30,991 bases of DNA, taken from a virus. This document shows, piece after piece, positions 22,825-30,991 of the stretch. The notes under the pieces are model-generated. The model saw only the letters and a program-made list of their open reading frames with translations, did no database searches and had not been told where the DNA came from. Made by a program: the position numbers and the translations under genes. The stretch is taken from the UHGV virus genome UHGV-0237462; one strand, written 5' to 3'. Position 1 is the first letter of the stretch; every line of letters starts with the position of its first letter.

Positions 22825-23523
22825 TTATTTGTTTCTTCTTTGTTCACGCCTTGTCTTGGCTTCGATAAGGCGTTGAGGTTCAGTGTAAAGCCGTTCTAAA
22901 AAAAGATAGGTAAAATCTTCAAGATCCTCAGCAGCAGCTTTATCCAAAATACCTTCATGCGCTCCATCATTTCCGTCATCTTTAACGCATTCAGCTAGTT
23001 CCCTTAAAGCTTCAGGCAGTAGATGATTATCAAATAACCACTCCATTCTTAACCCTAGGCTTCTCCTTATTTTTTGCGCAGGCCCTTGCTCCCCATCAGG
23101 AAGAAGTCCTTTTGTGGCATAATCAAGGCAAAGCCTAAACATGGTTGCTGCTGCATTATAACAACCTATAGCCAAACATTTCGCCCCTTCCTCATATGCA
23201 CTATTGATATGCTCAGGTAAGAACTCTGGTGGCTCCTCTACTGCTAAGTCTGCCGGTGATATAGGTCTAACAACCTCTGCAACTTCCTTTAAGCCGAATA
23301 TTCCACTTTCCCAATTATAGCCATCTAAAGTTTTATTTTTCGTTAAAGGTCTGCAAAGAAAAATTGTCGTTTTATGACACTCTCGGCAAACACAATAGAC
23401 CTCGTACTCGTATGTTTTACCCCCGCCCAATGCATTGTAAACCCTAGTGCAATTCAGCCCATTAACATCAAACGCTATTTTTTGTGATCCACATCGTGGA
23501 CAGTCATCCACTAACATAACCAT
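22825..23523 (-). CDS. Cargo protein: N-terminal zinc ribbon plus C-terminal helical domain resembling DUF4145 (possible HEPN-like effector), 232 aa
   Basis: ATG at 23523 with GGGAGGAG 8 nt upstream; CPRC ... CVCREC four-Cys ribbon; C-terminal half shows the pattern I associate with DUF4145 (..GNDGAHEG.. flanked by amphipathic helices); sits between cos and the 3' end of Q, converging on Q with an 8-bp gap. Confidence 0.65.
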   Translation of the reverse strand: MVMLVDDCPRCGSQKIAFDVNGLNCTRVYNALGGGKTYEYEVYCVCRECHKTTIFLCRPLTKNKTLDGYNWESGIFGLKEVAEVVRPISPADLAVEEPPEFLPEHINSAYEEGAKCLAIGCYNAAATMFRLCLDYATKGLLPDGEQGPAQKIRRSLGLRMEWLFDNHLLPEALRELAECVKDDGNDGAHEGILDKAAAEDLEDFTYLFLERLYTEPQRLIEAKTRREQRRNK

Positions 23524-23633
23524 GTCAATTACTCCTCCCTATGAAAAAAATGAGTTGAAAAATTGAATATTCACGACTTAAAAAGCTAGCCTATTTAACA
23601 CCATAATTTCATTAATTCAACCATGAGCGCGCG

Positions 23634-23652
23634 CTCGTATCCCCGCCACGCC
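23634..23652 (-). other. Probable cos site (19-nt cohesive end region)
   Basis: Minus-strand GGCGTGGCGGGGATACGAG followed by CGCGCGCTCATGG resembles my recollection of the P2 and 186 cohesive ends (GGCG.GGCGGGGA.. then .GCGCGCT.A.GG); location between A-side genes and Q is as expected. Confidence 0.5.
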
Positions 23653-23693
23653 TGCCCGCTTTATGTAGCGGTTTTCATGCGCCTGCATGACAT

Positions 23694-23721
23694 AAGCAAA
23701 AGCCCGCCACTCCTGGCGGGC
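23694..23721 (-). terminator. Rho-independent terminator ending the right-arm transcript just before cos
   Basis: Stem GCCCGCCA (23702-23709) / TGGCGGGC (23714-23721), loop CTCC; on the minus strand followed by TTTTGCTT. Confidence 0.6.
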
Positions 23722-23812
23722 CTCAGCTAAAACGATCCTCAAACGATCATGCGGATTCATGCGGCATAGACATGCACAATCTCCAAAGCGGGCATCGAGA
23801 CTTTTTGGAAAC

Positions 23813-24424
23813 CTACGTAACCACAGTTAATGTGTGCATCCTGTCTCGAATTGCATCACACGTCTCATCAAAAAGCTTGGTGATGGTTGTACGGTTCAAC
23901 TCCGCCTCTTTCCAATAATTTTGCCCGTCAAATTCTGGATCGCTATGCTTAAACGATATTGACTCTGAAAGGCATTCCTTCCGGAAACGGTCCAAGATTA
24001 TATAAACCTCTGGTGAGATGAACGGTTTGTTAGATTCAACACTTGTAACAAAAGTATTAAATGCATCAAAAAAAACTTTCAACCTTCTAAATTTTCTCTC
24101 TTCAAATGGTTCGTTGGGGTCAACATGATCCAGCGCAGGCCTCAGCTTAAGCACGCTTTCTCTGGTTTCAAACATCGAATTCCAAATGAGACTATATGCT
24201 GATAACTCCTTATCAAAATACGCTTTCGTTACATAAACAGAATTGTCTAACTTAGCCTTTATTCTTTCATTAGTTGCACTCAGTTGTGATTGAAATTCAG
24301 CAATATCTTTGTTTAGCCGCGACTTATATCTTTCTAAATAAACTTTCCCGATCCAAACAAATATGCTAGATGCAACAAAAGACACCCCACCCAACGAAGC
24401 CAGAACTTTAAAGACTAAATCCAT
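23813..24424 (-). CDS. AT-rich cargo protein, N-terminal TM anchor plus soluble helical domain, 203 aa
   Basis: ATG at 24424 with GGTGGGGG upstream; hydrophobic N-terminus (VLASLGGVSFVASSIFVWIG); own consensus -10 upstream and terminator downstream; visibly AT-rich. Confidence 0.65.
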   Translation of the reverse strand: MDLVFKVLASLGGVSFVASSIFVWIGKVYLERYKSRLNKDIAEFQSQLSATNERIKAKLDNSVYVTKAYFDKELSAYSLIWNSMFETRESVLKLRPALDHVDPNEPFEERKFRRLKVFFDAFNTFVTSVESNKPFISPEVYIILDRFRKECLSESISFKHSDPEFDGQNYWKEAELNRTTITKLFDETCDAIRDRMHTLTVVT

Positions 24425-24453
24425 TGCGCCCCCACCTGCAAAAATAGTATTCC

Positions 24454-24459
24454 ATTATA
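24454..24459 (-). promoter_or_regulatory. Consensus -10 hexamer TATAAT for the 203-aa cargo gene
   Basis: Minus strand TTGATT-15 bp-TATAAT about 30 nt upstream of the ATG; the spacer is shorter than optimal. Confidence 0.35.
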
Positions 24460-24472
24460 AGCTAATACATTT

Positions 24473-24733
24473 TTAATCAAACAGGGGATAATTCGCGTCA
24501 ACCTCATCACTTCTCTGCTCTACCCTAGTGACTTCCATCAAAAACCCCAGGCCGTCATATAGCGAAACGGGGAATTCCAGCTCAAGCCAGAAGCAGTCTT
24601 CATAGATGCGGCCCAACCAAAAACCTCCGCCACACTCCTTTGGGCGTTGAAAGAAGACCCAGTCGCCAAGGGTTAAACGTTCCAGCACCTGGCCCCGATA
24701 AATAATCTGGTGATTACTGTCTTTTTTACCCAT
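24473..24733 (-). CDS. Hypothetical protein (86 aa from the ATG at 24733)
   Basis: The ORF-track start is TTG; the internal ATG with GAGG 8 nt upstream is preferred; no recognisable motif. Confidence 0.5.
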   Translation of the reverse strand: MGKKDSNHQIIYRGQVLERLTLGDWVFFQRPKECGGGFWLGRIYEDCFWLELEFPVSLYDGLGFLMEVTRVEQRSDEVDANYPLFD

Positions 24734-24806
24734 GGCTAACGCCTCGCTACTCTCGTTGTTCAACCTTGCTGACGTCAGATTCAAGTTCTTACATCAGGAA
24801 CGTTCC

Positions 24807-25040
24807 TTAGTGCAGCCAGCTGTCGTCTTCCCAAACCTGTTGCATAATTTCCATCACCCGCTTTTTGTCTTCATCAAGCTTTAAGCCACTCAGCTCAACG
24901 CCGTTTGCCGACCCTTTACGGATGCGGATAGCGGTCTTGGGATAGATGGGTTGCAGGTTGCGGTAAAGCTCGGACTCCAGAGCGTCTAAGGTAGACTGGC
25001 TAATCTTCTGCTCTTTATCGATCATTATTTCAATGCGCAT
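24807..25040 (-). CDS. DinI-family protein (77 aa); likely the C-terminal module of a Tum-like SOS antirepressor
   Basis: MRIEIMIDKEQKISQSTLDALESELYRNLQ...WEDDSW aligns along its length with E. coli DinI as I recall it. Confidence 0.7.
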   Translation of the reverse strand: MRIEIMIDKEQKISQSTLDALESELYRNLQPIYPKTAIRIRKGSANGVELSGLKLDEDKKRVMEIMQQVWEDDSWLH

Positions 25041-25050
25041 AAAAGTCACC

Positions 25051-25239
25051 TCAGCTGATGACATCCATTGAGCGGTTGTATTCGTGGCTTCTGATTTTTG
25101 CCATGAGTTCATCAGTCAATTCAGAAACCCACTGCAGGGCCAGCCCCTTCTCTTCATCACTACACTCACTAGCCGCTACAAGCTTAAGAAAAAAATCAAT
25201 GCGCTGGAGCTTCAAAGACTCCAAAAAATAGTCCTGCAT
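25051..25239 (-). CDS. Small protein (62 aa) immediately downstream of the LexA box; possible N-terminal part of a split Tum-like antirepressor
   Basis: ATG at 25239 with GGAGG 4 nt upstream; the stop lies 11 nt before the DinI-like start. Confidence 0.5.
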   Translation of the reverse strand: MQDYFLESLKLQRIDFFLKLVAASECSDEEKGLALQWVSELTDELMAKIRSHEYNRSMDVIS

Positions 25240-25280
25240 CTTTCCTCCTATGACACCGCAAACAATACTGTATAGATAAC

Positions 25281-25300
25281 CACTGTTTATATTTACAGTA
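25281..25300. promoter_or_regulatory. LexA (SOS) box
   Basis: CACTGTTTATATTTACAGTA contains CTGT-N8-ACAG with an AT-rich spacer; centred about 51 bp upstream of the 62-aa ORF. Confidence 0.65.
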
Positions 25301-25392
25301 TATAATAATCTTACTGATGTAAAACGTTTTTTTACGTTCATCAGCCTGATATGCCTGGTATTATTAAGAGCACGAATTGTTAACCCGCGTAA

Positions 25393-27807
25393 TTAATACA
25401 GGTTCCGCCACTTATCATCTTCCTGCAAACGCTGGTTCCGATAGAAGACACGCAGGCCTGCTCCTGACGGAATACTGCCGCCGCGAAGGAGTAAATCGAC
25501 CTCTTTCTCGCTGCCATCAAATCCTCTGGACTTCAGTTCATAGACGAGCTGCTGTCGTTGATGGTCTGTAATTCGCTGTTTGTAGTCTCTACGCCGTTTC
25601 GGTTTCACCAGGCGTAACCTTGCAGCCAGTTCCCGGCGCTCTTTTTTGTTCATACTGTGCAGGTAATCGTGCAACTCCTTGTCATCCATGTGGGTAATGT
25701 CCGTTCTGGTATCCCCATCAGCTGATTTGTCTTTCCCTTGTTGGTTCAAATTTTCAGCAAGGGGACAGTTATTGCCACGAGTCCAAGGGGCGCAAGCGCC
25801 CTGGTCGGCAGCCGCCTCCTGAACGTCAACGGCCTTACGAACCATTTTCCACTTCACTGCATGAGTGCAGATCTTGCCCTCTGCAATGGGTGACCAGATG
25901 CCATAAATACGAATACCGTGATCGCCATAGGCGGTTGGCTCTTCGTTGATTTCATAAGCGGTTCTGATGAGGTGATATTTGCGGGGAACCAGTACGCCGC
26001 CCTGCTTCATGATGTAGGTGGCAAAACAACCAGCATCAGCAGCAGCCAGGATGGCATCAAGGCGCGGGTTATCCAGTACCGGCGCACCTGCTTTTTTGTC
26101 ACCCTGTTGCCTTGCCGCCTGACCAGCCAGCAATCGCAGTTCACGGTAAGCCTGACGCCCCGGAATGCCAAAGAAGCGGAATTGCTGAACACGATGCAGA
26201 GACGCCCAGGCATTAACGTATTCAGCGTTATCACGCAGGGATTTACCCGTTTCCTTACTGATCTCGCCAGCCAGACCACGCCCGTCAATATTCTTACTGA
26301 TATATTTCGCAATGTAGCTTGTCGGCGTTCCTTTGCGCGGGTTTATCAGCTCAGACTTAAAGCGTGGCCCCGTGTTATTGCCCAGCTCCTCGCGGTCTTC
26401 TCGGATGGCAAACTTACGCAACAATGCAGTAATGGCGCGGCGGTCTTTTTTGCGCATGAAACACAACAGGTGCCAGTGAACTGTGCCGTCATGATGCGGC
26501 TCAGCCACCCGCACGCCATACCAGCGCAACCCGGCTTTGTGCATAGCCTTACGAAATGCAGCAAACATGCCGACCAGATAATCGCTGCTTTGTCTTACTG
26601 TCGCGTTGGTCCAGGTCGGGTTTGGCCTGCCGTTATTTAGCGTGGAATGGAAACGTGACGGACAGGTGATGGTGTAGAAAACGGCGCAGTCACCACGCAT
26701 TTCCGCGATAAGCTCCAGGCCTTTAACACAGGCCATCATCTCGTTGCGGCGATGCGCCGGGTTGCTGCTGCTGGCGTTTACCACATCCTCCATGTTCAGC
26801 GTGTCGCCGTCTTCGTTCACCAGTTCATGAGAACGGAAAAACTCCAGCGACTTACGGCGCTGCTCACGTTTATGCATCACGGCTTCATAGCTGACATAGG
26901 GAGATGCTTTTTTGCTGACAAGGCAGACAGCACGCAACTGCTCTTCCCGCCATTCGCAACGCATCTTCCATAATTTCCGATACCACCAGTCGGCGCACAG
27001 CATACGCGCCAGCGAACCCGGAATGAGTTCATAAGGCACAGGTTTGCGGCGGTTTCTTTTCCGGCGGAGTTGCTCAAACGCAGGCGGTATGACATCCAGT
27101 CGCAGGGTTTCTGCAGCCACCTTTTCCCATGTCTTGCGGATTTCTTCTGGCTTAACATCATCGGAGGCGTACAAATCACCACAAGCGGCATCAAGACACA
27201 TGCTCATATGCGCAGCGACAAGGGTAGACAGGCGTTTCACCTGATCCTGACTCATTTCAGGCAGGATCAGCAGACCGTCCAGCCCTTCATGGCTTGCCAT
27301 AAAACGAAAAGATGCAGATAGCTGGCTGTCGCGTATATGCTCCAGTCGTTCCAGACATGGCTTAATCGTCTCACGCAAATAGCGGGAATAAGCCTTTGGC
27401 CTGCCCAGGCTGCTGAAATATTCAATACGTTGCATCAGCGGCTTGCTGATATGGGAAGGCTGGGCGTTGACGTCAGCCAGAATGACCATGTCTGGATTAA
27501 AACGCTGCTGCTCATGCGCCATCTTTGCCCGGCTAATGAGCTTATCCTGCTCCATTTCGCGTTGGACAGGATCACGGGATTCATTAAAGAAATAACGCTC
27601 CCAGACCTGATCACTCAGTGCCTCGCGGCGCAGTTGTTCCTGCTCGTTATCGGTAGCGTACAGAGTGATCAGGTTTGAAAGCGCAGAAACCGGCGCAACT
27701 TCCGCCGGGTCCAGATAAGGGTTAATGGCCTTTTTCGGGCTGTTCCATGAGAATGCTGCGGCGACCTTGTTAAAGCCGCTGCAGTTGTTCATATCAGCAT
27801 GGCTCAT
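25393..27807 (-). CDS. A: Replication initiation endonuclease gpA (rolling-circle)
   Basis: 804 aa; P2/186 A-like size and position; start overlaps the Dam stop (ATGA). Confidence 0.9.
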
Positions 27808-28661
27808 GCACGCACTCCGTACACGGCAGAACTATCCACGCCACGCGAAGGATCAAATCCCACCCAGCAGCGCGGCCCGGAAACAGCGATGATTTCTGTT
27901 GCAGATTTACTCTCACCAGCTGCTACACCGATGCTGCGTTTTGCCTTGATGTAGTGGTGAGTAAAATTGCGATACAGCGAACGGATCAGGGATGTATCAC
28001 TGTTAGAAACAATGACCGGATGTCCTTCTGATGACCGATGTTCAAGAACGGATGCCAGGTGATACTGGTCATCTTCAGTGAAACCATCAGTGTGATAGCC
28101 GGAAAACGTACCGTCATACGGCGGATCGCAATACACCACATCCCCCACCTGCAGCATCGCCAGCGTTTCATCAAAGCTTGCGCAGATAAACGTTGCACGC
28201 TGGGCTTTCTCTGCAAATGCGCGAATTTCTTTTTCAGGGAAATACGGATTTTTATAATTACCGTAGGGAATGTTGAAATGCCCGCTCTTGTTATAGCGAC
28301 ATAAACCACGGTAACCGTGACGATTGAGATACAGGAAATATACCGCTTTCATGAAATCAGTAATTTCAGTGGAGTAATTAAACTCCTGCCTTATGTTGTA
28401 ATAAGCCACCTCCCTGTTTGCGATCTCAAATAAAACTCTGGCGCGAGATATAAACGATTCACAATCAGAGGCAACCTTTTTATAGAGGTTGATTAAATCA
28501 GGATTAATATCCGCAACCAGATAGCTGGGGTAATCCGTCTCCATCATCACAGCACAGGAACCCGCGAAAGGTTCAACCAGTCGCGGGCCAGCAGGAAGGT
28601 GTTTTTTCAGTTCGGACATAATGGCGGTTTTATTTCCCGCCCATTTCAGGATGGTGCTCAT
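27804..28661 (-). CDS. dam: DNA adenine methyltransferase (Dam family)
   Basis: ATG at 28661 with GGAGG 6 nt upstream; N-terminal ILKWAGNK and catalytic DPPY motif (YCDPPYDG). Confidence 0.85.
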
Positions 28662-28885
28662 ACAGCACCTCCGTTGTAATGTTTGCCTTTCAGCTCTGCG
28701 ATTTCCTGACAGGTAATGCAAAGCTGCACACCCGGAATGGCACGGCGGCGTGCTGGCGGAATTGGCGCTTCACACTCAACGCAAAGCACGCGGGACACGC
28801 CCGGCGTTTTGGCACGGGCAGCACGGATATGACGTTGGCGTTCTTCTTCAACTCGCTGCTGTACGAGATCCATTGCATCAGCCAT
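28658..28885 (-). CDS. TraR/DksA-family C4 zinc-finger protein
   Basis: 75 aa; CVEC ... CITC four-Cys motif typical of TraR/DksA C-termini; stop overlaps the Dam start. Confidence 0.7.
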   Translation of the reverse strand: MADAMDLVQQRVEEERQRHIRAARAKTPGVSRVLCVECEAPIPPARRRAIPGVQLCITCQEIAELKGKHYNGGAV

Positions 28886-29948: not shown

Positions 29949-30458
29949 TCACAGCAAACCGAATGAAGCACCAAGGCCAGTCATGGTATCAACTGCACTC
30001 GCCATCGCCGGGTTAGCCTGTAAACGGGCCTGCAATGAAACAGCAGCCAGCGCCATCAGTCGTGTTACAGAGTTAATGCTGCTGATAGCATCACGACGAC
30101 CTGCACTGGTTTTTACATTGCCAGATACCGCACCTGCAGCAATACGCCCGATCTCTGCGGTTGCACTCATGACGTAATGCGGCAGTTTCTCTTTTGCTAC
30201 CTCATTAATCGGTACACATGGCAGGCAGTGAATCTGTGCCAGAAAACCATCTATCAGCGTTGAATCTTCAGTCAGATCGGTAAGCAGCCAGATTTCTGGC
30301 GCATTGAGCTGATGCGGTTGATCTGGGTTGAGTTTGTTTCGCAGAGTCTGGACATTCATTCCTGCACGTTCTGCCAGCTTCGCCATATTATGACGAAGTG
30401 CAAAAGCTCTACAGGCTTCATCAAAATGCGGGTGTTTGGAAATCTTATAATCAAACAT
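29949..30458 (-). CDS. cII: CII-like lysogeny establishment activator (phage 186 CII homologue)
   Basis: 169 aa; MFDYKISKHPHFDEACRAFALRHNMAKLAERAGMNVQTLRNKLNP closely matches 186 CII as I recall it. Confidence 0.85.
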   Translation of the reverse strand: MFDYKISKHPHFDEACRAFALRHNMAKLAERAGMNVQTLRNKLNPDQPHQLNAPEIWLLTDLTEDSTLIDGFLAQIHCLPCVPINEVAKEKLPHYVMSATAEIGRIAAGAVSGNVKTSAGRRDAISSINSVTRLMALAAVSLQARLQANPAMASAVDTMTGLGASFGLL

Positions 30459-30490: not shown

Positions 30491-30733
30491 TTACTTACCA
30501 ACAATGACGCGGAAGTTGGAATGACCGAGGGATTCACGGACCTGATCTGTTTTGTACATTAAATAACGCAGGCTTACGCGGCCTTTGTTTTTTTCTTTCT
30601 TGACCATGTATTTAGCAAGCTGACCATGGTGAATTTTTTGATACACGGAGCCGCGGGAGATACCTTCCCATTCCGCGAACTCAGCAGGCGTTGCCATCTC
30701 TTTTGGTACACGAATTGAAATATCAGTACTCAT
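30491..30733 (-). CDS. apl: Apl-like excisionase/transcriptional regulator (186 Apl / P2 Cox analogue)
   Basis: 80 aa; MSTDISIRVPKEMATPAEFAEWEG resembles 186 Apl; first gene of the lytic operon. Confidence 0.8.
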   Translation of the reverse strand: MSTDISIRVPKEMATPAEFAEWEGISRGSVYQKIHHGQLAKYMVKKEKNKGRVSLRYLMYKTDQVRESLGHSNFRVIVGK

Positions 30734-30846: not shown

Positions 30847-30991
30847 TTATGAGTTTAATCAAGGCGGGGAATGATAGTGGTGGGCGCGATGCGATTAATA
30901 GGCTTATTAAGGCTTACAACTTCAGCTCACGACAGCAGCTCTGCGAACATCTGGAAGTATCAAAAAGCACTATGGCTAACAGATACTTAAG
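30847..30991 (+). CDS. cI: CI-type immunity repressor, N-terminal fragment (runs off the window)
   Basis: ATG at 30847 with AGAGG upstream; ..INRLIKAYNFSSRQQLCEHLEVSKSTMANRY fits the 186 CI N-terminal pattern as I recall it; divergent from apl. Confidence 0.7.

Follow-up and report, generated by a model that had tools for sequence, protein, structure and literature searches.

Tum, the antirepressor of phage 186 (NP_052290, 146 aa), is encoded by one fused ORF and its C-terminal half is DinI-like. The protein binds CI reversibly and keeps it from its operators, according to Shearwin et al. (1998; cited in PMC3121763 and PMC7708051). The annotated p95 promoter of 186 has a −10 hexamer, TACTGT, that forms the first six bases of the LexA site. 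Three internal in-frame starts of tum are given in the 186 record, the last being a GTG located after AAGGAGG; since this GTG gives a DinI-only product of about 76 aa ('modulates SOS induction' according to the record), 186 also makes a TumB-like protein separately.

The tumA and tumB genes of PSP3 (NC_005340) are named precedents for a split arrangement. The first (NP_958094) is recorded as 'similar to 5' end 186 tum; UV induction of prophage' and the second (NP_958095) as 'similar to dinI and 3' end of 186 tum'. PSP3 TumB is 78% identical to Fels-2 TumB. Lemire et al. (2011, PMC3121763) report that tum is split in two in both Fels-2 and PSP3 and cite a personal communication according to which the upstream gene of PSP3 encodes an antirepressor. 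Fels-2 accounts for the lethality of lexA-null mutations in Salmonella (Bunny, Liu & Roth 2002, cited in PMC3121763). In E. coli HS, which carries the prophage DuoHS, an in-frame deletion of tum and a lexA(Ind-) mutation each abolish mitomycin C lysis (Phollow paper, Nat Microbiol 2025, PMC12055606, Extended Data Fig. 1). The two-gene SOS switch is therefore already known, being described both in the literature and in GenBank records.

The locus described here is found in UHGV virus genome UHGV-0237462, a stretch of 30,991 nucleotides (referred to below as the window). It lies on the minus strand, immediately 3' of the gene encoding a gpA-type replicase. Very probably, it is the SOS operon of a Fels-2/DuoHS-type prophage of the P2 family (Peduoviridae), which acts by Tum antirepression and whose two genes are naturally split. 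Its anatomy, conservation, purifying selection and homology support this reading, and the identical protein and promoter of E. coli HS provide the genetic necessity. The features are given in Table 1.

Table 1. Features of the putative SOS operon and of the 186-type switch, with positions in the window
Feature	Coordinates	Strand	Description
cI repressor gene (start), predicted target of Tum	30849..30991	+	First 47 codons; the gene is cut by the window end
apl/cox-like gene	30733..30494	-	Divergent from cI
cII-like gene	30458..29952	-	Part of the 186-type switch
gpA-type replicase gene	27807..25393	-	804 aa, P2 gpA replication endonuclease; Pfam Phage_GPA, E = 2e-127
Stem-loop	25313..25345	-	Follows the gpA stop codon and precedes the SOS promoter; its 3' arm extends into the -35 hexamer
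p95-like sigma-70 promoter	25295..25323	-	-35 TTTACA (25323..25318), 17-nt spacer, -10 TACTGT (25300..25295); read from the sequence
Candidate LexA box TACTGTAAATATAAACAGTG	25281..25300	-	Left arm is the -10 hexamer
ORF1, tum/tumA-type gene	25054..25239	-	62 aa; ATG at 25239, TGA at 25053-25051
Intercistronic spacer GGTGACTTTT	25041..25050	-	10 nt, between the ORF1 stop and the ORF2 start
ORF2, tumB, DinI family	24810..25040	-	77 aa; ATG at 25040, TAA at 24809-24807
86-aa ORF	24476..24733	-	phrog_2100 (E = 2e-37); the alignment begins at M18 of the 103-aa mechanical ORF
203-aa ORF	23816..24424	-	Hydrophobic N-terminus; phrog_26391, E = 2e-141
Intrinsic terminator	23698..23728	-	11-bp G+C-rich stem, 4-nt loop, then UUUUGCUU

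The 20-mer TACTGTAAATATAAACAGTG is, judging from its letters, a candidate LexA operator. The reference consensus, TACTGTATATATATACAGTA, is the LexA (SOS) box of gammaproteobacterial type, i.e. a CTGT-N8-ACAG palindrome with an AT-rich spacer; the 20-mer matches it at 17/20 positions, the 3 mismatches being all located outside the CTGT and ACAG cores. The bare CTGT-N8-ACAG 16-mer, which occurs once in the whole window, is not unusual in 31 kb (0.46 expected; at least one found in 35/100 shuffles). A 20-mer with at most 3 mismatches to the consensus was found in 0/100 shuffles, and the LexA box that the earlier note had placed before the 62-aa ORF is confirmed at 25300..25281. Nine of 11 related phages, 186 and PSP3 among them, have the box or a close variant of it at the same position: it is identical in HS, Cartapus and Fels-2, and variants are found in SEN8, MLG42, ESSI2_ev129, PSP3 and 186. 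By analogy with DuoHS, which has an identical box and needs LexA cleavage for its induction, the box would be bound by LexA. A conserved TACAGTAT half-site is located beside it (25273..25266).

The promoter has the architecture of 186 p95 and its sequence is identical in DuoHS. It was not flagged by a generic promoter consensus scan, because its -10 hexamer matches the consensus at only 3/6 positions. The stem-loop found upstream (RNA fold of -12 kcal/mol, z = -4.7, 0/200 shuffles equally stable) is not followed by a clear U-tract and may be a terminator or an insulator of the early operon. Terminator-like palindromes also precede the LexA boxes of Gifsy prophages (Lemire 2011, PMC3121763). 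A scan of positions 23500-25500 against Rfam gave no hit above threshold.

Each ORF has its own Shine-Dalgarno sequence: AGGAGG, a strong one located 5 nt before the ATG, for ORF1; GAGGTGA, which combines the ORF1 stop codon and the spacer, for ORF2. The spacer is one nucleotide shorter than the 11 nt first reported. Relative to ORF1, the ORF2 frame is shifted by +1. The two frames thus differ, as previously claimed, but the genes themselves do not overlap; only the mechanically extended ORFs do, which start at the ATGs at 25341 (96 aa) and 25112 (101 aa). The 96-aa version could not be read from the SOS transcript, since the ATG at 25341 is upstream of the -35 hexamer. A hairpin extending from the ORF1 stop to the ORF2 ribosome-binding site (25062..25045) was evaluated as a possible element of translational coupling or attenuation and rejected: it is not more stable than in shuffled sequences (z = -0.98) and is absent in SEN8.

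The protein encoded by ORF1 is identical (62/62) to DuoHS Tum, ECHS_RS04495 (WP_001154431.1). As far as sequence comparison can tell, it is remotely homologous to the N-terminal half of 186 Tum, the antirepressor part. Both proteins match the same three PHROG families: phrog_698 (E = 6e-38), phrog_8554 (1e-8) and phrog_1993 (2e-3) for ORF1; phrog_1993 (1.5e-23), phrog_8554 (3e-12) and phrog_698 (6e-6) for the N-terminal half of 186 Tum. Pairwise BLASTP of ORF1 with residues 1-70 of 186 Tum gave no match. Alignment of the two subfamilies by hhalign is gapless over residues 1 to 44 (E = 2.6e-4, probability 42%). As pairwise BLASTP is negative and the hhalign probability is only 42%, the homology rests on profiles, intermediate sequences and synteny. 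An alignment of 40 sequences of the family, including intermediates, is colinear, lacks internal gaps and has near-invariant E7, R13, C26, A34 and E40. AlphaFold2 predicts a hairpin of two helices (residues 2-23 and 28-61) with the conserved Cys26 in the turn (mean pLDDT 88). Foldseek comparison of this model with PDB and BFVD retrieved only generic helical hairpins, none at E ≤ 0.001, and ORF1 has no match in Pfam, NCBIfam, PADLOC or PDB sequences.

The assignment of ORF1 to the Tum/TumA proteins is based on homology to an experimentally characterised Tum (identity with DuoHS Tum; profile level for 186), on the location 3' of gpA with a LexA box over the promoter -10, as in 186, PSP3, Fels-2 and DuoHS, and on the cognate switch, which is of 186 type (CI, divergent apl/cox, cII) and not of the P2 C type, its cI being partial. 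ORF1 would sequester CI. This function is proposed by analogy with 186, the biochemical evidence for direct Tum-CI binding having been obtained with the fused 186 protein only.

The protein encoded by ORF2 matches Pfam DinI (PF06183) over profile positions 1-63 of 63 (E = 2e-24; 86.1 bits for a cut-off of 24.2), in agreement with its initial assignment to the DinI family. It aligns to positions 71-148 of the 151 positions of phrog_189, to E. coli DinI (PDB 1GHH, E = 2e-9) and to residues 71-145 of 186 Tum (43% identity); the view of 186 Tum as a single protein with a DinI-like C-terminal half is thus correct. The score against the NCBIfam DinI equivalog NF007893 is 53.7 bits for a cut-off of 111. 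As this is below the cut-off, ORF2 is not an orthologue of the host DinI; it encodes a phage paralogue (TumB type) and not DinI proper. The acidic C-terminal helix is kept (EDKKRVMEIMQQVWEDDSW, aligned to EDKQRISEILQETWESADDW of DinI). By extrapolation from the host DinI and from the note of the 186 record quoted above, TumB probably binds RecA filaments and tunes the SOS signal.

DuoHS is identical to the window in its promoter, LexA box, ribosome-binding site, 10-nt spacer and ORF2 start, and its tum is also located after gpA. It differs in TumB (ECHS_RS04500, 66/77 identical), in downstream cargo genes and in CI, which has only about 40-47% identity to the Fels-2-type CI encoded in part (N-terminus) by the window. 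Fels-2 carries the pair STM2728 and STM2726.1 and the same LexA box; its TumA is 97% identical and the first 47 residues of its CI are identical. Its TumB is 86% identical, with dS = 1.33 (0.09 for TumA); this high dS suggests a recombination joint between tumA and tumB. The 243-aa STM2726 is found downstream of the Fels-2 pair, where the window has the 86-aa and 203-aa ORFs. PSP3 shares with the window the succession of a LexA box, a small antirepressor gene and a 77-aa DinI-like gene. However, its TumA (60 aa) belongs to another sequence subfamily, the 186-like one (about 17% identity), its spacer is 3 nt, its tumA and tumB are in the same frame, and its CI (286 aa) has a duplicated N-terminal domain. 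186 has the same genomic position and promoter/LexA-box architecture but a fused tum with an extra linker of about 25 residues, followed by orf97 behind a partial terminator. The Gifsy-1/2/3 dinI-gfoA/gftA operons (PMC3121763) are also LexA-repressed and encode a DinI paralogue and a small non-proteolytic antirepressor; in these lambdoid prophages, dinI comes first and the antirepressors and repressors are unrelated in sequence.

ORF1 and ORF2 are naturally separate genes and not a broken fused tum. They are separated by a TGA stop and a 10-nt spacer and are offset by +1 in frame; the locus thus does not have the 186 architecture. The two-gene layout is found in PSP3, Fels-2, DuoHS, Cartapus, SEN8, a Yersinia phage, Salmonella phages and dozens of Klebsiella phages. 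It also has a match in 1126 of 5426 complete E. coli genomes (about 21%), including BL21(DE3). A sample of 25 E. coli rows spread across the ranking of the matches was inspected: in the 24 rows with a query coverage of 88% or more, the features annotated under the match include a DinI-family or DinI-like protein together with a 'hypothetical protein'. Among relatives, the spacer is 3, 10, 11, 12 or 13 nt and the stop is TGA, TAA or TAG, while the lengths of 62 and 77 aa are kept; because spacer lengths differ, the frame offset between the genes also varies (0, +1, +2). Both ORFs are under purifying selection: dN/dS (Nei-Gojobori, six relatives) is 0.05-0.15 for ORF1 and 0.00-0.06 for ORF2, and remains well below 1 for both in distant relatives, for which dS exceeds 1.

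The earlier note had proposed, as one of two explanations, that a frameshift has split tum. According to this reading, a recent frameshift or nonsense mutation would have broken a 186-like fused gene and left a weakened or dead induction module. The ORFs are indeed adjacent and in different frames, and their combined length (139 aa) is, as the earlier note stated, roughly that of one Tum (146 aa). Moreover, fused and stand-alone forms coexist among close relatives of the 186-type N-terminal half, indicating that fusion or fission events occur in the family. The conserved layout, the separate Shine-Dalgarno sequences, the constant lengths despite variable stops and spacers, and dN/dS values far below 1 even at saturating dS argue against such a split. 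An exhaustive HMMER scan of 1.84 billion representative proteins retrieved 67 relatives of ORF1, among which none (0/67) carries a fused C-terminal extension of DinI length or is a fusion of about 146 aa; the longer ones are N-terminally extended calls or have short unrelated tails. In addition, the module that has identical Tum, promoter and box is functional in E. coli HS. A broken tum is thus extremely improbable, and the other explanation of the earlier note, a phage that naturally encodes two proteins, is the one that agrees with the layout conserved across relatives. A two-ORF organisation of 186 and its relatives had been named as the observation that would speak against a split: it is found in PSP3, Fels-2 and DuoHS, but not in 186 itself, where the gene is fused. 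The search for an indel by nucleotide alignment of the window with 186 tum, PSP3 tumAB and Fels-2 was unproductive; only the DinI half aligns credibly and no splitting indel can be named, because the N-terminal halves are too diverged at the nucleotide level.

The 186-type N-terminal subfamily includes both fused proteins and stand-alone proteins of 63-78 aa, several of which are named 'Tum protein' in their source. ESSI2_ev129 has a LexA box and a TumA-like gene without any DinI gene. The tumA and tumB modules are therefore separable. It is more likely that separate genes are the common and probably ancestral state and that 186 tum is a fusion; 186 tum retains the ribosome-binding site and the start codon of tumB internally.

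The probability is likewise very low for programmed +1 ribosomal frameshifting towards the end of ORF1, which would add a fused Tum-like protein to the two separate products. The ORF2 frame is open over 72 nt upstream of its ATG, 59 nt of which overlap the 3' end of ORF1, and this speaks for such an event. However, since the frame relation varies among relatives, as given above, this mechanism was rejected. A conserved slippery motif is absent, the junction hairpin (see above) is no better than shuffled sequences, and a fusion length of about 140 aa is found in 0 of the listed database relatives of ORF1.

In naturally separate genes, the induction factor could be either product. ORF2 could be the inducer (e.g. 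via RecA), ORF1 being an accessory or leader peptide, or the two proteins could jointly constitute a non-covalent Tum. Joint action is conceivable since both parts form one polypeptide in 186, and literature searches turned up no report of a tumB deletion in a Fels-2-type phage. These proposals are nevertheless improbable in view of the DuoHS deletion. Primer NHR28, composed of ATAGGAGGAAAGATG followed by TGAGGTGACTTTTATGCGCATTG, joins the ATG of the 62-aa ORF to its TGA and keeps GGTGACTTTTATGCGCATTG (PMC12055606). Its two halves have exact single matches in the window, one at the ORF1 start and the other at the ORF1 stop/ORF2 start. The deletion thus removes exactly the equivalent of ORF1 and leaves the DinI gene and its ribosome-binding site and start intact. 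As induction is abolished by this deletion of ORF1 alone, the induction factor is ORF1, and ORF2 by itself does not suffice. Several observations point in the same direction: phages of ESSI2_ev129 type lack a DinI gene, tumA and tumB have separate histories according to their dS values with Fels-2, and PSP3 tumA is annotated for UV induction and encodes an antirepressor according to the personal communication cited above. Finally, deleting dinI in Gifsy prophages does not significantly affect induction (PMC3121763).

No terminator-like site was found between tumB and the 86-aa ORF, which is probably a co-transcribed downstream cargo gene. The 203-aa ORF would probably be the last gene of the SOS transcript; it has no family in Pfam, PADLOC or NCBIfam. 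Both ORFs are also present in Cartapus (CARTA_46 and CARTA_47, respectively). The intrinsic terminator that would end the transcript (23728..23698) has a stability of -25.1 kcal/mol (z = -4.7, 0/200 shuffles equally stable). Two perfect 10-bp palindromes located between tumB and the next ORF (24797-24806 and 24769-24778) were treated as chance occurrences, because 23 such palindromes are observed window-wide for about 30 expected, i.e. without enrichment.

The Tum antirepression reading leads to the following proposed mechanism. In the lysogen, host LexA would sit on the box overlapping the -10 of the p95-like promoter. After DNA damage, active RecA would lead to the self-cleavage of LexA, and the promoter would then fire and produce a polycistronic mRNA, predicted to begin about 7 nt after TACTGT. 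The product of the first cistron, the 62-aa helical-hairpin Tum/TumA, would bind the 186/Fels-2-type CI non-covalently and keep it off its operators, leading to derepression of the early lytic operon (apl/cox, cII ... gpA). The second cistron, translated from its own ribosome-binding site in the other frame, would provide TumB, which probably binds RecA filaments and tunes the signal.

The N-terminus of the window CI is identical to that of Fels-2 CI (47/47) and 39% identical to that of 186 CI (E = 5e-10). As the cI start is identical to that of Fels-2, the prophage is predicted to be SOS-inducible by antirepression. The coupling of the prophage to the host SOS response, predicted in the earlier note, has genetic proof for the identical Tum and promoter/LexA box in E. 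coli HS (PMC12055606).

These assignments bear on annotation. The 62-aa 'hypothetical protein' found in about one fifth of complete E. coli genomes corresponds to the Tum antirepressor, and the neighbouring 'DinI-like protein' is TumB and not a broken gene. Some annotations wrongly name the 62-aa Tum 'levan regulatory protein', and others make it too long (84-101 aa).

Induction of the prophage is expected with mitomycin C, UV or fluoroquinolones and would proceed, as in the relatives of the prophage, through the antirepressor, not through RecA-mediated cleavage of the repressor. SOS inducibility bears on prophage mobilisation and is the textbook behaviour of the 186/Fels-2 group. In a comparison of the CIs of the Fels-2/window type, DuoHS, Cartapus and ST15-OXA48phi14.1, the same 62-aa Tum (97-100% identical) was found paired with CIs whose overall identity is only about 40-62%. 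A segment of the N-terminal domain, SKSTMANRYLRDSFPAEWVIQCALETG-SL-WL-TG-G (residues 39-75), is near-invariant in these CIs but differs in 186 CI; 186 Tum likewise has an N-terminal half of another subtype. One Tum being paired with divergent CIs that share this segment, Tum may recognise a conserved surface of the CI N-terminal domain and not the immunity-specific parts. This proposal, a correlation for which published work settling the matter was not found, is tentative and somewhat less probable than its converse, as is the trans-induction of heteroimmune P2-like co-residents that it would allow. If it is true, the Tum of one prophage could induce heteroimmune co-resident prophages, i.e. 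a Gifsy-style crosstalk could exist in Peduoviridae.

The antirepressor gene tumA (window 25054-25239) is Fels-2-like (dS 0.09 against Fels-2, L006), and tumB, the DinI-family gene (window 24810-25040), is not (dS 1.33 against the same phage). Both genes are Cartapus-like, with dS values of 0.06 (tumA) and 0.09 (tumB) against phage Cartapus (L005). These distances point to a recombination joint between tumA and tumB, the two genes being modules with separate histories. In Escherichia phage ESSI2_ev129 (L011:7940-8213), gpA, the replicase gene, is followed by a LexA box (TACTGTGTTTATATACAGTT) and a TumA-like gene of 70 aa. This locus has no DinI-like gene, and the gene that comes after the TumA-like one is encoded on the other strand.

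The right arm of the LexA box is changed from ACAG to ACAT in Klebsiella phage ST15-OXA48phi14.1 (L013:7200-7310) and to CCAG in ST13-OXA48phi12.1 (L008, upstream of 7129). Judging from these mutated arms, SOS control of tum could be leaky or altered in both prophages. The half-site-like motif listed in the table is kept in HS (the DuoHS locus of E. coli HS) and Fels-2. Variants with one or two positions changed are found in Cartapus, ST15-OXA48phi14.1, SEN8, MLG42 and ST13-OXA48phi12.1. The bases between the LexA box and the motif are variable among relatives, and the left half of the would-be second box is degenerate (GTGG in place of CTGT). The stem-loop on the other side of the LexA box (fold of -12 kcal/mol, z = -4.7), at which no clear U-tract is present, may be a terminator or insulator of the early operon.

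Features in and around the tum module of the window
Feature	Window position	Strand	Location or assignment
Cargo ORF pair, 86 aa and 203 aa	23816-24733	-	phrog_2100 (86 aa) and phrog_26391 (203 aa); downstream of tumB, ahead of the first strong terminator
232-aa ORF	22828-23523	-	phrog_1305, 'DNA binding protein'
LexA half-site-like motif TACAGTAT	25266-25273	-	7 nt downstream of the full LexA box
Stem-loop	25313-25345	-	separates the gpA stop codon from the tum promoter; overlaps the -35 hexamer
DNA adenine methyltransferase (Dam-like) gene	27804-28721	-	4-nt overlap with the gpA start

The 86-aa and 203-aa cargo ORFs, the latter with a hydrophobic N-terminus, are probably SOS-induced together with tum. 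The same pair is found in Cartapus. The 232-aa ORF is located beyond the terminator of the SOS operon, within the variable gpA-to-portal cargo region; it gives a weak PADLOC match (E = 9e-7) to PD-T7-4, a single-gene defence candidate. Cargo of this region in relatives includes an ATP-binding protein with an RloB-domain protein, a SEFIR-domain protein, or a TIR-domain protein. The Dam-like gene/gpA arrangement is also found in Fels-2, DuoHS and Cartapus.

Many public gene calls use upstream ATGs, so that Tum becomes 84-101 aa long and TumB 101-105 aa. Such over-extended calls are seen at window 25051-25341 (-) and 24807-25112 (-) and in entries P0001, P0004, P0010 and NC_049342 gp07/gp08. For the 96-aa Tum call, the start is located 5′ of the SOS promoter. 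In some sources Tum carries the label 'levan regulatory protein'. Both this label and the extended calls look like annotation artefacts.

Immunity repressors (CI) that are only 40-62% identical are partnered by Tum proteins that are identical or 97-98% identical (CIs compared: DuoHS, L014:18701-19270; Fels-2, L006:1171-1803; Cartapus; ST15-OXA48phi14.1; window 30849-30991, first 47 codons only). All CIs in the set have in common a near-invariant segment (residues ~39-75 of Fels-2 CI, ...SKSTMANRYLRDSFPAEWVIQCALETG...), which differs in the CI of phage 186. From sequence comparison, this segment is a possible target of Tum and a possible basis of cross-induction.
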